The notes under the pieces: generated by a model
Seen by the model: only the letters and a program-made list of their open reading frames with translations
Databases searched by the model: none
Told to the model about the DNA's origin: nothing
Shown here: piece after piece, positions 56,664 through 62,074 of the stretch
Layout of the letters: each line of letters starts with the position of its first letter
How positions within the stretch are numbered: the stretch's first letter is position 1
IMG/VR virus record: IMGVR_UViG_3300043449_002450
Coordinates: 64,001-128,000 of that record
DNA: 64,000 nucleotides
Origin: a virus
Reading direction: 5' to 3' (one strand)
Made by a program: the position numbers and the translations under genes

Positions 56664-56949
56664 AAGAGCAGAACTACTATTAAAAGTTGTCACATGGAGA
56701 CTCTTCTCCATGTGTTACGGCTTTTCGATCGCATACTTTTTCACAAATAACGCCATGGAATCTCTAGGAATTGTGGCTCTAACAGGATCCACTTTGACAC
56801 TTTTGCAGTGGCTTTTTGAGATTTTGTGGGATAACCACATCAGGGAGCGCTTAAGATATGCCCTTTCAAGAGAACAAGGTAGAGCTAGTTGGCTATTATG
56901 GTGGCGACGAGGCACACGCGCTGTCAGCGTGGACGAGCACAAGCCGTGA
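56656..56949 (+). CDS. Small membrane protein, DUF2061-like
   Basis: LLKVVTWR...IAYFFT...FEILW with two hydrophobic segments. Confidence 0.55.
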   Translation: MNRRAELLLKVVTWRLFSMCYGFSIAYFFTNNAMESLGIVALTGSTLTLLQWLFEILWDNHIRERLRYALSREQGRASWLLWWRRGTRAVSVDEHKP

Positions 56950-57523
56950 CCTAACAGAGGAGAAGCGGAATCGAATCCCGACGCTCCTAAAAATGCTTGC
57001 AGAAAATGGACACGAGACACCGTTTGAGAAGAGCTCACTTCATTTTCTAGTGACAGTTGACACAGCAACACACATCCACCTCCTAAAGCATCGCATTGGC
57101 GTGTCCATTAATGGCGAATCAGCACGCTACAAAGAGCTGCGTGATGATAAATACTTTCTTCCAAAAGACTGGCCGCTAGAGGAGCAGGCGCTTTATGTTG
57201 CCTTCATGGAGGACGCTCTCATGCGCTATCATGATGCGCTCGAGCGCTTCTTCGAGAATGGCATGAATCGAAAGCGTGCGAAAGAATCGGCTAGATTCTA
57301 CCTTCCCTATGGCAACCAGGTTACATTGGATGTGATGTTTAACTGGAGATCTTTTAACCACTTTCTTGGCCTACGCATGAAGCAAGACGCCCAGAGAGAA
57401 GTTAGAGAGCTAGCAGAAAAGATGCTACTCCTAGTAAGGAACATTCCAGGTGATCCGTTCAAGCACACGATCGAAGCATTCGGTCATCTTGATGATGTCG
57501 AGCAGTTTTCTCCGCCTTACTAA
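56858..57523 (+). CDS. thyX: Flavin-dependent thymidylate synthase (canonical)
   Basis: GHETPFE, KHRIGVSINGESARY, ESARFYLP and NWRSFNHFLGLR...AQREVR. Confidence 0.92.
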   Translation: MPFQENKVELVGYYGGDEAHALSAWTSTSRDLTEEKRNRIPTLLKMLAENGHETPFEKSSLHFLVTVDTATHIHLLKHRIGVSINGESARYKELRDDKYFLPKDWPLEEQALYVAFMEDALMRYHDALERFFENGMNRKRAKESARFYLPYGNQVTLDVMFNWRSFNHFLGLRMKQDAQREVRELAEKMLLLVRNIPGDPFKHTIEAFGHLDDVEQFSPPY

Positions 57524-57535
57524 TAAGTAAGAGCG

Positions 57536-57856
57536 ATGCCCTCAAAATACGCACCAGCACCCGACTCAACTTCACAGAAGGTCATTAGATTCTTCCTAAA
57601 GAAGCTAAAGAAGTCGGGTCATTCTGCATTTGAGATCGATAAGGAAACGAGACGCTTCACGTCGATCTATAGCTCTGTTGTCAATCATGCAATGAACGCA
57701 AAAGGTCAATCACGGAAGCAAGCGCACAAGTATGCCTTAAAGGTCTACACAGAGCAAGCCCCAAAATGGGCGGCCAAAGTTCTAAAGAAGAGTAAAGCTT
57801 CCAAAAAGAAGGCGCTCAAAGAGGTTATTAGGTTGATCATCGATACACTCATGTAA
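57536..57856 (+). CDS. Small basic hypothetical protein, putative late gene
   Basis: Lys-rich 106 aa; ATAAGTA motif 6 nt upstream; C-terminal LKEVIRLII. Confidence 0.6.
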   Translation: MPSKYAPAPDSTSQKVIRFFLKKLKKSGHSAFEIDKETRRFTSIYSSVVNHAMNAKGQSRKQAHKYALKVYTEQAPKWAAKVLKKSKASKKKALKEVIRLIIDTLM

Positions 57857-57884: not shown

Positions 57885-58316
57885 ATGCGTGCTCCCCCGT
57901 CGCCTTATAGTCTAATACAAGAGAAGGTCCAGGATGATCCCTGGCGTGTCTTTGTTGTTTGCATATTCTGCAACTTGACTAAGCGTGTTGATGCCGAGCC
58001 CATCATGTGGAAGTTCTTTGACAGATGGCCAGACGCATCATCTGCTGCGCTTGCGGATCAAGAAGAGATCCGTCTAATGATCAAGGATCTTGGTCTTGGA
58101 GAACGACGTAGCAAGACCCTTGTAAGGATGTCTCAAGATTATCTTTCGTGGAACTCCCGTGACCCTGGAGACCTCTATGGTATTGGAGAATATGCAACAG
58201 CAGCCTACAAGATTTTCTGTGAACACGCGTGGAGCCAGATCGCTGAGCCAAAGGACGGCGCACTGAAGAAGTATTGGAAATGGATCAACAACGTGCAGGA
58301 GGTTAGAAATGCCTGA
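57885..58316 (+). CDS. MBD4-like HhH mismatch DNA glycosylase (stand-alone catalytic domain)
   Basis: PPSPYSLIQE...DPW, WKFFDRWP, LGL, LYGIGEY...YKIFC and PKDGALKKYWKW parallel the human MBD4 glycosylase domain as recalled (PPRSPFNLVQE..DPW..LHGIGKY..YRIFC..PEDHKLNKYHDW). Confidence 0.85.
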   Translation: MRAPPSPYSLIQEKVQDDPWRVFVVCIFCNLTKRVDAEPIMWKFFDRWPDASSAALADQEEIRLMIKDLGLGERRSKTLVRMSQDYLSWNSRDPGDLYGIGEYATAAYKIFCEHAWSQIAEPKDGALKKYWKWINNVQEVRNA

Positions 58317-59106
58317 GGGGCCAGAAGTTAGGATCGTTACAGACGGATTGCGACGCTCTATCCTAGACCAGAAAATTGTATCGGCATCTATTATAAGCGG
58401 TCGCTATGCTAAGCGCTCGCCTGATGGGTGGAACCTTCTGCAGGTTCCTAGGCAAGTTATTGATGTGAGCTGCAAGGGTAAATTTATCTACATGTCTCTT
58501 GAAGGCGACACATACCTTCTAAGCACGCTGGGTATGACAGGATCATGGTCATCAAATCTGACTAAGCACAGTCGAATTAAGATTGAGCTAGAGAGCGGTG
58601 GGACGGTCTACTTCAACGATATGAGAAATTTTGGGACAGTAAAATTGATCTCATCTCGGGACCAGCTAGATAAGAAGCTGAAAGAACTGGGACCTGATAT
58701 GCTATCTGAAGACGTGACAGATACAGTCTTTCTTAGATCTATTAGAAGATATAATAAGACACTAGCAGAAGTGTTAATGGACCAGAAAGTAGTTTGTGGT
58801 GTAGGAAACTATCTTAAATCAGAATCTCTATATTTTAGCGGTCTTGATCCTCACCGTCTAACATCAACTTTAAGTGACGAAGAAATTAAAAATCTTAATA
58901 AAGTCATCAAAAAGGTGATTAGAACTTCTTATGAGACAGGAGGCGCGACGATCTACACTTTCTCCAACTTTGATGGAGAGAAGGGCGATTACACCAAGCG
59001 TTTTGCTGTCTACAATCAGACCCAGGATCCTCTGGGCAACAAGATCAAAAGGGAAACGACAAGGGACGGTCGGACAACCTTTTGGGTTCCAGGAATTCAA
59101 AAATAA
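58309..59106 (+). CDS. Fpg/Nei DNA glycosylase-lyase, zincless-finger type
   Basis: N-terminal MPEGPEV, KGK, LGMTG, DMRNFG, LGPD, LMDQ..GVGNY; C-terminal GRTTFWVPGIQ without a Cys4 finger. Confidence 0.92.
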   Translation: MPEGPEVRIVTDGLRRSILDQKIVSASIISGRYAKRSPDGWNLLQVPRQVIDVSCKGKFIYMSLEGDTYLLSTLGMTGSWSSNLTKHSRIKIELESGGTVYFNDMRNFGTVKLISSRDQLDKKLKELGPDMLSEDVTDTVFLRSIRRYNKTLAEVLMDQKVVCGVGNYLKSESLYFSGLDPHRLTSTLSDEEIKNLNKVIKKVIRTSYETGGATIYTFSNFDGEKGDYTKRFAVYNQTQDPLGNKIKRETTRDGRTTFWVPGIQK

Positions 59107-59115
59107 GAGGAAAAG

Positions 59116-59361
59116 ATGGAAACAAATAGTTACAAGCTTTCTGATGATGTGATTGGTCAGGTTGCAAAGCTTCTACAGCTAGCCATTATCACAGGAACAG
59201 ACGTCGTCGACAATCTCAGGACCCTTAAGGTCAAGCTTGATGTCGATTCTGGTTTGGTTGTTCCAGACCCAGACTACATCAAGACTTTCGACGAGAACCT
59301 AACACGCCTTGTCGCAACAGCAGCGATGGTATCTGCTCATGACGATGAGGGAGAAAACTAG
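59116..59361 (+). CDS. Hypothetical protein
   Basis: GAGG SD; 81 aa; stop codon coupled to the next gene. Confidence 0.6.
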   Translation: METNSYKLSDDVIGQVAKLLQLAIITGTDVVDNLRTLKVKLDVDSGLVVPDPDYIKTFDENLTRLVATAAMVSAHDDEGEN

Positions 59362-59735
59362 TGGCCGATAAGCTCGATCTAATGTTTGATATGCGGGCCA
59401 AGTTCATGGATGAGCTTCGTAAGAAGCACCCGGACGCCTATCCAGACATGCCCGTTGATCTAACTAGCAAGAAGTCGCAACAGCACCTCAGGGATCTCGC
59501 TCTGCGTGGCGTCGAGGAGGTCTTTGAGGCTGTCCAGCACCTTAAGAACTGGAAGCCACATAGGGAGACTGAGGTCGCCGATTTTGATCGCGCGGCTTTC
59601 AAAGAGGAGATGGTTGATTCATTCAACTACTTCCTGTCTCTTCTCATCCTGATGGGTGTTACACCGGACGAACTTTACCAAGCTTACGTCGATAAAGATC
59701 AGGTCATACACGGTAGAATAAAAGGTAACTACTGA
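59361..59735 (+). CDS. All-alpha NTP pyrophosphatase (dimeric dUTPase/MazG-like)
   Basis: EEVFEA...WKPH...EEMVDSFNY...Y.DK...R...Y pattern. Confidence 0.8.
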   Translation: MADKLDLMFDMRAKFMDELRKKHPDAYPDMPVDLTSKKSQQHLRDLALRGVEEVFEAVQHLKNWKPHRETEVADFDRAAFKEEMVDSFNYFLSLLILMGVTPDELYQAYVDKDQVIHGRIKGNY

Positions 59736-59742
59736 GGATCAT

Positions 59743-60678
59743 ATGAAATTGTCTGACGCGCTCCAGCGCCAGCGTGTGTTTTCTGATCTGTTCTTTGATT
59801 CCACCAAGTTTGATGATGCCAAGCGCGAGGAGATGACAAAGTCTTTCGCGCTTGCATTGCATGGCGAAGTATCAGAACTTATCAGCTCGATCAACTTCAA
59901 GGACCATCACTCAAATAGGAAAACTCCTGATCGGGAGAAGATCCTATACGAGTCGATCGACGTGATGCGTTATCTCTTCGCGATCATGAATGTATGGGGA
60001 TGTGAACCTGACGAGGTCGAGACAGCCTTTGAAGATAAGGACACATTCCTACACATGCGCCATCGTATCGAGAACGCAAAGTGGGACGGTCGCCCGGTCC
60101 TCCTCGTCGACGTCGATGATGTTATTGCGCACTTCAGGAAGGACTACTTCGAGTGGCTTAGCGACAAACACGGAATCAACATCCCGTTGGACTATCCGGA
60201 ATACTACGCATCCTCACCACTGCACGAGCGTGGCATCAACCCAGAAGCTTCCTTTAAGGAATTCATTAGCGAGCGTCGACTCCGTGTCATCGAGCCCATA
60301 GAGGGTGTCCGCGCCGTGCTTAGGGAGGCGCAGAAGATGGGTTTTTGGATCCAGCTTCTGACTGCACGTCCCGACCAGAATCTCATTTGCCTCTATGACA
60401 CCTACCACTGGATAGACAAGATGAGCATCCCATTTGATGGGATTGCTTTCAGCGGTGAAAAATACAGGTGGCTTGTGCAGAGTCAGTTTTATGGTCATGT
60501 AGCAGCATGCATCGATGATTCGCCCAAGCACGCGGCAGAGTATGCAAATCACGGTCTTCTTGTAATCTCACCGAAGCTTTCGTATAATGAATCATTGAGA
60601 GACGTAAAAAACGTCATTCGATATGGCAGCGTCGATGAGCTGCTTGAACAGATCACAGCACTTAAAGAAAAGAGGTAA
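59743..60678 (+). CDS. MazG-like pyrophosphatase domain fused to HAD 5'(3')-deoxyribonucleotidase
   Basis: N-terminal GEVSEL...YESIDVMRY; C-terminal HAD motifs VDVDDV, LTAR and IDDSP. Confidence 0.78.
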   Translation: MKLSDALQRQRVFSDLFFDSTKFDDAKREEMTKSFALALHGEVSELISSINFKDHHSNRKTPDREKILYESIDVMRYLFAIMNVWGCEPDEVETAFEDKDTFLHMRHRIENAKWDGRPVLLVDVDDVIAHFRKDYFEWLSDKHGINIPLDYPEYYASSPLHERGINPEASFKEFISERRLRVIEPIEGVRAVLREAQKMGFWIQLLTARPDQNLICLYDTYHWIDKMSIPFDGIAFSGEKYRWLVQSQFYGHVAACIDDSPKHAAEYANHGLLVISPKLSYNESLRDVKNVIRYGSVDELLEQITALKEKR

Positions 60679-60680
60679 AA

Positions 60681-61628
60681 ATGCCCCAGAATCTAGACCT
60701 ACAACCTATCACCCTTCCCATGGCGATCCGCTTCGGCGAGAAGCCCACAACCGAGTTTGTCAACAGCCTTGATGCACTCAAGCTCGAGCTTGTTGACGCT
60801 CCGGACCCCTACACCATTCGACAGGCTGTCTACTGCTTTGTCAAGTCGACCTGGGCTGACCAGCATGTTCCATTCCGCGATGCATCTGATGCTGATCTCT
60901 CGAAGACTCTTGAGGACGTCTTCGCAGGACGTGCTCTTCCTGCAGCGATGGAGCTGATCGGTCTCACCTTCCTCGTGGGTGGCATCGACACACAGACCGT
61001 GACTCACCTCATCCGCCACCGTGCAGGTTCCTTCGCAGCACAGTGCACCGGCGACCGTTGGCTCTCTCACGAGCGCAGCCTTGTTCCTGGTTCCATCCAG
61101 AACAGTCCGGAGTTCTATGCCCGGTGGCAGGCGCATGTCCAGGAGGCGAAGGAGCTCTACACAGACATGGTCGACTCCAAGCAGATCAGCCTGATGGATG
61201 CTCGCCACGTCCTTCCCAAGTGCCTTGAGACCTTCTACTACATGCGCATGAACATCCGTGACGCGTTTGGTTTCATCAAGCAGCGGCAGGATAAGCAGAT
61301 CCAGCCCGAGGAGGACAACATCCTCGCAGCTCTCATGGCCCGCGAGATCATCAAGATCTTCCCTGAGGCACACGTGGCGATCAACCTCCGCGAGCCTGCC
61401 TGGCACTACATCAAGACGTTTCGCAATGGCACGGGCACCAACCTCTACTGGCCTGATGAGGACAGTGAGAAGCACCTTACATACCACCCGAACGACACGA
61501 TCTACCAGGCAACTCGTGACGACATGAATGGCGCGGATGGCGGCGTCCCACACTTCCGCAAGCTCTGGAATGAGATCCTGTCTGACATCGACACTCTCGT
61601 TACTAACTACAAGAATAGCAAGGTATAA
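60681..61628 (+). CDS. Divergent ThyX-fold flavoprotein (second paralogue, altered active site)
   Basis: LTF...THLIRHRAGSF, DARHVLP and NIR...F...R...Q.E ThyX scaffold, but GH replaced by GRALP and SxRY by CTGDRW; GAGG SD; strong C-ending codon bias. Confidence 0.8.
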   Translation: MPQNLDLQPITLPMAIRFGEKPTTEFVNSLDALKLELVDAPDPYTIRQAVYCFVKSTWADQHVPFRDASDADLSKTLEDVFAGRALPAAMELIGLTFLVGGIDTQTVTHLIRHRAGSFAAQCTGDRWLSHERSLVPGSIQNSPEFYARWQAHVQEAKELYTDMVDSKQISLMDARHVLPKCLETFYYMRMNIRDAFGFIKQRQDKQIQPEEDNILAALMAREIIKIFPEAHVAINLREPAWHYIKTFRNGTGTNLYWPDEDSEKHLTYHPNDTIYQATRDDMNGADGGVPHFRKLWNEILSDIDTLVTNYKNSKV

Positions 61629-61630
61629 CA

Positions 61631-62074
61631 ATGAATAACGTCTACATCGCAAGTGGCTGGTTCTCTCCTGAATGGCTCCAGGAGGTCGAGGACATCAAGA
61701 AGGTCCTCGAGGATCTCGACCTCGCTTACTTCTCTCCCAAGGACTATGCCATCGCAGAGGCTGACTCTTCGACTGACACCCAGAAGCAGATCTTTGACGG
61801 CAACGTCAAACACCTTGACACCTGTGACTGGATGGTCTGCAATACCCGCAATAAGGATATGGGATCGATCTGGGAGGCAGGTTATTTCTACAGTCTCAAC
61901 AAGCCCATCGTCTACTTCTGTGCAGGTCTACCACCGGGCGCCAAGTTTAATCTGATGCTTGCAGCAAGTGGTGTTGCTGTGTGCACATCCGTCCAGGACC
62001 TACGTGATTATCTTCGTCAGTGCAAGGAGGCAGGCAAGCTCTTGCCACGCACCTACGGCGGATTGATCGAGTAG
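61631..62074 (+). CDS. Nucleoside 2'-deoxyribosyltransferase/nucleotide N-hydrolase family protein
   Basis: VYIASGWFS, YFSP, DMGSIWEAGY (catalytic Glu), KPIV and FNLML. Confidence 0.85.
   Translation: MNNVYIASGWFSPEWLQEVEDIKKVLEDLDLAYFSPKDYAIAEADSSTDTQKQIFDGNVKHLDTCDWMVCNTRNKDMGSIWEAGYFYSLNKPIVYFCAGLPPGAKFNLMLAASGVAVCTSVQDLRDYLRQCKEAGKLLPRTYGGLIE

Follow-up and report, generated by a model that had tools for sequence, protein, structure and literature searches.

A large freshwater phage encodes a stand-alone protein that we confirmed to be a genuine MBD4-family catalytic domain. Its gene lies in the window (the whole 64,000-nucleotide stretch of DNA analyzed here), which belongs to an IMG/VR virus contig of 176 kb that is 52% complete by CheckV. 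The reading frame overlaps that of a Nei/Fpg-family enzyme, and the two products probably constitute a phage-borne two-step base-excision module for T or U mispaired with G, the first of them acting as a functional, monofunctional MBD4-family glycosylase that has no iron-sulfur cluster. Genes in the window are packed tightly and all lie on one strand. Those of main concern here are the following.

56858..57523, + strand: canonical ThyX (dTMP supply), matching Thy1 with an E value of 1e-34.
57885..58316, + strand: stand-alone MBD4-type HhH-GPD DNA glycosylase (P0001), 143 aa.
58309..59106, + strand: Nei/Fpg-family bifunctional glycosylase/AP lyase, 265 aa, with the N-terminus MPEGPEV.
59361..59735, + strand: all-alpha dUTPase_2/MazG-like NTP pyrophosphohydrolase, syntenic with the glycosylase in the lineage.
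59743..60678, + strand: dUTPase_2/MazG-like domain fused to an NT5C-type HAD 5'-nucleotidase.
60681..61628, + strand: divergent ThyX paralogue, 315 aa, scoring below the NCBIfam thyX cut-off.
61631..62074, + strand: nucleoside 2-deoxyribosyltransferase-family protein.

The strand opposite positions 57885-58316 is interrupted by stop codons. Runs containing the sequence were of DNA from freshwater and lake metagenomes, with no RNA runs listed, and a scan for promoters and terminators returned nothing exceeding shuffled expectation. Just 5' of the glycosylase gene, positions 57536-57856 encode a 106-aa lysine-rich protein that matched no Pfam or PHROGs family; this slot is variable in relatives, where it holds ORFs of 32-275 aa.

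Comparison with PDB sequences by phmmer matched residues 3-135 of the 143-aa protein to the glycosylase-domain chains of human and mouse MBD4 (E values of 4e-32 to 5e-31), and the next-best families were MutY (E value of about 0.02) and MIG (0.13). HhH-GPD was the sole Pfam match, at a borderline 26.6 bits for a cut-off of 26.2. Scores for the NCBIfam models were far below their cut-offs (nth, 19 bits vs 212; mutY, 15.5 vs 286.5), and PHROGs v4 had no family for this protein or for its counterpart in phage Xp12, described below. An AlphaFold2 model based on 72 aligned sequences (pLDDT of 94.6) superposed on human MBD4 in complex with T:G DNA (6vjw) with TM scores of 0.94/0.97 and an rmsd of 0.9 Å. 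The same fold was seen for the human glycosylase domain (residues about 426-580) in 6vjw, 4dk9, 4e9g, and 1ngn, with TM scores of 0.94-0.97, rmsd values of 0.9-1.6 Å, and sequence identities of 36-38%, and the best structural match other than MBD4 was MIG (1kea, TM score of 0.62). The preliminary description had recognized in this ORF an MBD4 catalytic domain from end to end, a reading that both the phmmer match and the superposition bear out; by phmmer, NCBIfam, and fold alike, the protein groups with MBD4 and not with the ordinary Nth, MutY, or MIG type.

MIG (the prokaryotic T:G enzyme, which removes T or U opposite G), Nth, and MutY share with the phage protein the HhH-GPD superfamily and the catalytic Asp, but they have a 4Fe-4S cluster at the C-terminus and lie much farther away (E values of 0.02-0.13 and a TM score of about 0.62). 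Their C-terminal iron-sulfur loop, Cys-X6-Cys-X2-Cys-X5-Cys, is absent from the phage sequence. Since its only cysteines are C26, C29, and C112, none of them past D124, and the chain ends 19 residues after this catalytic Asp, the protein lacks an iron-sulfur cluster, as had been proposed and as is also true of human MBD4. The N-terminal methyl-CpG-binding domain and linker are likewise missing from the ORF. Plant MBD4L also has an MBD4-type catalytic domain without a methyl-binding domain (PMC9266487), but it retains a long N-terminal extension, whereas the phage protein is the domain alone.

Residues were mapped from the alignment with 4dk9, and roles were taken from the human enzyme as described by Morera et al. 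2012 (PMC3479182), the source for every line below.

I11 (main chain), Val448 in human MBD4: contacts O4 of the base through the main-chain amide.
Q12, Gln449: pyrimidine reader; Q449A is inactive in human MBD4.
N30 and T32, Asn467 and Thr469: lie on either side of the intercalating loop.
L69 and G70, Leu506 and Gly507: loop that reads the orphan guanine.
Y103, Tyr540: contacts O2; site of the lyase Lys in bifunctional HhH enzymes.
D124, Asp560: catalytic in human MBD4.

The human and phage proteins thus have in common the catalytic Asp, the Gln and Tyr base readers, the NxT loop, the LG loop that reads the orphan G, and a Tyr at the position of the HhH lyase Lys. The three motifs named beforehand were found at residues 10-13 (LIQE), 99-103 (GIGEY), and 122-124 (PKD). 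Equivalents of Gln449, Tyr540, Asp560, Asn467, Thr469, and Gly507 were invariant in all 117 proteins of the window lineage, in 80 of 80 IMG/VR proteins, and in all four proteins from isolated phages; the D124 equivalent was also present in nearly all eukaryotic rows of the alignment.

The match to MBD4 is not residue-perfect at the DNA-intercalating loop, because the basic residue (Arg468, or Lys) that plugs the space vacated by the flipped base is not present and the phage protein has L31 in its place. Leu occupied this position in 117/117 window-lineage, 66/80 IMG/VR, and 4/4 isolate rows, and eukaryote-type rows had Lys (69/125) or Arg (35/125). Viral forms have an Arg at the Gly471 position, three residues past the plug site (R34 in the window protein), and this residue may serve as the plug instead of Arg468. 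The pocket-lining Leu466 is replaced by Cys in the window lineage. Given the Arg468-to-Leu and Leu466-to-Cys substitutions, the enzyme may not share the substrate range or the sequence-context preference of MBD4. The Leu-for-Arg plug of the viral form is a natural variant that could help dissect the MBD4 mechanism.

The downstream Nei/Fpg ORF is complete, contains Fapy_DNA_glyco, H2TH, and C-terminal domains and scored 182 bits against the fpg model; its family in PHROGs, phrog_21295, is listed with unknown function. It overlaps the MBD4-type ORF by 8 nt (ATGCCTGA), with the glycosylase stop codon within the overlap, and a Shine-Dalgarno sequence (GGAGG, 58298-58302) lies inside the glycosylase ORF, 6 nt 5' of the Nei/Fpg start codon. 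The Nei/Fpg C-terminus has no Cys-type zinc finger. Its best PDB matches were 3a42, 3a45, 3vk7, and 4nrw (E value of 5e-46), which we take to be structures of mimivirus Nei1 and Nei2 (NEIL1-like, with a zincless finger), and bacterial Fpg and Nei scored far lower. With the closest matches of the second enzyme presumably from mimivirus, both glycosylases of the pair look to be of eukaryote or giant-virus type.

The pairing recurs outside the window. Of 80 IMG/VR loci, 42 had a Nei/Fpg gene within 8 kb, which in 30 of them lay no more than 1.5 kb downstream, and about half of the viral loci had no Nei gene nearby. One sublineage has the MBD4-type ORF and the Nei ORF in the same frame, uninterrupted by a stop (L055:7989-9227; P0122, L015:7068-8234), and the junction ...EEDT(L/V)MPEGPE retains the Met-Pro of Nei. 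This arrangement is not a sequencing error, since it occurs in two independent assemblies whose proteins are 90% identical. Nei/Fpg enzymes require a free N-terminal proline, so we take the in-frame ORFs to reflect a very tightly packed operon; they do not prove that the two enzymes are fused. Neither a UDG gene nor a second HhH-GPD gene was found in the 176-kb record (52% complete).

The overlapping MBD4-type and Nei/Fpg genes suggest a two-enzyme base-excision module. The glycosylase would most likely flip out T, U, or a 5-substituted U that is mispaired with G, as produced by deamination of plain or 5-substituted C. The pyrimidine would be read by Gln12, Tyr103, and the main chain of residue 11, and the orphan G by the Leu69/Gly70 loop, and the glycosidic bond would be cut using Asp124. 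Monofunctional HhH enzymes lack the lyase Lys (PMC8307549); since a Tyr takes its place here, the phage glycosylase should be unable to cut the backbone. MBD4-type enzymes leave the abasic site intact, which makes an AP lyase a logical partner, and the site would be handed to the Nei/Fpg-type AP lyase of the overlapping downstream gene. Such a module may protect a very large genome from C-to-T transitions. In animals, NEIL enzymes are reported to co-operate with TDG, and the phage pair may be likened to that arrangement. The phage protein departs from eukaryotic MBD4 in three respects, namely the Leu-for-Arg plug, the stand-alone architecture (a bare, phage-encoded 143 aa), and the translational coupling to a gene for a Nei-type lyase.

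Relatives of the window protein are numerous. An exhaustive search returned 2085 at E ≤ 1e-3. A metagenomic database clustered at 90% held 137 stand-alone relatives of about 140 aa each, and 237 IMG/VR contigs were matched by one degenerate pattern. Nearly every context examined looked viral, including those of nine metagenomic relatives, two of which are filed under bacterial or archaeal metagenome-assembled genomes (MAGs). One contig, L023, also filed as a Betaproteobacteria MAG, looks phage derived, as it contains numerous small ORFs together with a gene for a phage lysozyme; the other, L107, filed as an archaeon MAG, is a 6.4-kb contig on which no other gene was recognized. Mis-binning is a possible explanation for the MAG filing of both. 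In one divergent viral lineage, a gene for an AlkB-like 2OG-Fe(II) oxygenase (PF13532; L098:8493-9431) follows the MBD4-type gene, a DNA-repair context.

A single-protein pattern had zero matches in one genome per species across 185,579 prokaryotic species, and a prokaryotic genome scan with the lineage alignment (A3) had one, on the short contig L107 described above; this absence from cellular genomes holds for the subfamily pattern alone, because the scan covers only the subfamily signature. In E. coli K-12, profile A1 matched only MutY (34 bits) and Nth (22 bits). A megablast search of the phage collection with the 8.6-kb region gave no match, and no IMG/VR relatives were found for P0237. 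A search of the open-access literature returned no paper on an MBD4-type enzyme in phages or bacteria. The viral MBD4-type family is thus widespread and apparently undescribed.

No bacterial glycosylase in the PDB or NCBIfam is as close to the viral copies as eukaryotic MBD4. Past its own cluster, the window protein was matched best mostly by long proteins in which the domain is C-terminal, and those that we looked up were from a jellyfish, a centipede, a haptophyte, and a brown alga, in agreement with the earlier suggestion of a eukaryote-type enzyme encoded by a phage. The nearest clusters in the ESM Atlas were 96-100% viral, and the nearest structural clusters were chordate MBD4 and green-algal proteins. 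In a tree of 173 rows, the window lineage, the group of phage Xp12, and a methyltransferase-linked group formed one clade (SH-aLRT of 95). In a tree of 76 rows, the 40 viral or short sequences were all separated from the remaining rows by one branch in the maximum-likelihood topology (support of 12/0), and the viral side adjoined a well-supported haptophyte/brown-alga clade (99/95). Because the deep branches are unsupported (12/0 and 20/83) and the sole outgroup, E. coli Nth, sits on a branch of length 7.9 and provides no usable root, the trees do not show whether the domain passed from viruses to eukaryotes or the reverse.

Cultured phages also carry the gene. With the window glycosylase as tblastn query, 16 of 50,697 phage records matched at 26-31% identity: the Bradleyvirinae Xp12, AXL_1, and Donnerlittchen with their relatives, cyanophage S-TIM54, and an archaeal virus. 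The Xp12 protein (QNN97216.1) is labeled hypothetical in GenBank, and its relatives are labeled 'ENDO3c domain' or 'endonuclease III'. It is of MBD4 type, with an E value of 5e-14 to MBD4 vs 5e-4 to Nth. The proteins of Xp12, AXL_1, and Donnerlittchen resemble that of the window in being viral stand-alone MBD4-type domains with Leu at the Arg468 position; they differ in having about 25 extra N-terminal residues, and identity is 27-30%. Genomic settings differ as well, in that the Xp12-type gene adjoins a ThyA-type dCMP methylase operon and the window gene adjoins a Nei gene and a ThyX paralogue. In all three isolates, the MBD4-type gene lies directly 5' of genes for a HAD/pyrophosphohydrolase, a thymidylate synthase (TS) homologue, a dCMP deaminase, and DHFR, an order kept in 9/9 related IMG/VR loci. 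In Xanthomonas phage Xp12 (MT664984.1; L018:8929-12007), it heads a block of HAD, dCMP-type TS, dCMP deaminase, and DHFR genes. The Xp12 TS homologue has the motif PYD, with Asp at the position of ThyA Asn177, the known cytosine-specific signature. Xp12 DNA contains 5mC in place of all C (PMC8256090).

Around the window glycosylase, the order of genes for the glycosylase, Nei, two MazG-like proteins (one with a HAD nucleotidase), the ThyX paralogue, and the deoxyribosyltransferase is kept across the lineage. The ThyX paralogue is the sole candidate pyrimidine-C5-modifying enzyme near the glycosylase. Its motif RHRAGSFAAQCTGDRW has a Cys at the ThyX Ser position, and it had no match among PDB sequences and no characterized relative. 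Its sole homologue in a cultured phage is in Geobacillus phage GR1 (L108:7001-7969, 45.7% identity), where the neighboring genes encode a DnaE-like PHP protein, a deoxyribosyltransferase, DHH, HD, and NUDIX proteins, and a glycosyltransferase. We found no literature on the chemistry of GR1 DNA, and this phage could be a test system for the pathway of the ThyX paralogue.

Farther out, an ORF 3.2 kb past the window end (L002:4194-5102) was considered as a fusion of a dNMP kinase and a miniature cytosine-type TS, an assignment we rejected: it has a weak kinase-like N-terminal part only, and its C-terminal half had no Pfam, NCBIfam, or PDB match. A phage protein with an Fe/Mn superoxide dismutase C-terminal domain is encoded 8 kb past the window end (L002:8215-8913). 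In two relatives (L008:842-4273 and L010:1418-4849), the class II ribonucleotide reductase is interrupted by an intein with an HNH domain, and the ClpP and ThyX genes flank one for glutamine synthetase; both features are absent in the window phage.

The purpose of the module can be read in several ways. We consider it possible, if rather doubtful, that the DNA of this phage bears C5-substituted cytosine made through the ThyX-paralogue, NTP-pyrophosphatase, and nucleotidase genes, and that the glycosylase repairs a thymine-like deamination product invisible to the uracil repair of the host. Xp12-type phages link the MBD4-type gene to an operon with a cytosine-type TS (three isolates and the nine IMG/VR loci), and on one further phage contig (P0291) the MBD4-type gene lies two genes downstream of a PF00145 C5 DNA methyltransferase. 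These contexts follow the same logic as Vsr beside Dcm in enterobacteria, in which a T:G repair gene sits next to a gene for cytosine-C5 methylation; Vsr, which acts in very-short-patch repair, is an endonuclease with a fold unrelated to that of MBD4. In the window lineage itself, 31 of the 54 loci with enough flank have the glycosylase gene 2.3-5 kb 5' of the ThyX paralogue, and the order of glycosylase, pyrophosphohydrolase/HAD, and C5-pyrimidine enzyme parallels that of Xp12. The link to modified cytosine made in the preliminary description is partly supported, by the Xp12-type operons and the methyltransferase contig, and the co-occurrence with the ThyX paralogue was recovered, but for the phage of the window no such enzyme was found: the 176-kb record (52% complete) contains no PF00145, PF00303 (ThyA-type), or PF12851 (TET) match. 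A crude regular expression for C5 methyltransferases, which divergent enzymes may escape, was matched in 0 of 94 viral loci. Also against this reading, the ThyX paralogue has no characterized relative, synteny inside one lineage is a single evolutionary observation, and the downstream candidate kinase/cytosine-type TS fusion shows a kinase-like part only. Divergent viral members occur in ordinary replication or repair settings or among unrelated genes (neighbors include PolB, GyrB, ClpP, and an AlkB-like oxygenase), and within 8 kb of them there is no gene for pyrimidine modification. A broader version, in which viral MBD4-type enzymes are guardians of C5-substituted-cytosine genomes, the Cys-bearing ThyX paralogue here modifies dCMP by an undescribed flavin-dependent route, and the viral family was the source of the eukaryotic MBD4 domain, is in our view unlikely.

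Two other roles can be proposed. The glycosylase could attack the DNA of the host or of competitor phages, or strip an unmodified base from the phage's own DNA in a base-replacement scheme. The gene does lie near nucleotide-pool-editing enzymes, and glycosylases acting against modified phage DNA are known among defense systems (PMC11078745). We nevertheless judge such a role very unlikely, as the viral family shows no variation at any residue that makes MBD4 specific for T or U opposite G, MBD4 is inactive on normally paired bases (PMC9266487), and the close coupling with an AP lyase is in keeping with repair. The module could alternatively counter host deaminases that attack phage DNA, correcting the U:G or T:G lesions that such enzymes make. 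This would agree in a general way with the expected substrates of the enzyme, but no deaminase-defense context or inhibitor gene was seen, and conservation over hundreds of viral contigs from many habitats fits a housekeeping function better, so that we hold this role to be extremely unlikely. The reading we favor therefore remains repair of G-mispaired T or U by the glycosylase and its Nei/Fpg-type partner.

The reviews consulted place MBD4 in eukaryotes alone, where it guards methylated CpG; here we find its catalytic domain to be common in tailed phages. A compact predicted T:G glycosylase of 143 aa could also be a useful reagent. The interest of the viral MBD4-type family rests mainly on its connection to Xp12 and on the ease with which it can be tested. 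Xp12 is the textbook case of a 5-methylcytosine genome, and its MBD4-type gene offers a testable answer to how such a phage copes with deamination of 5mC.
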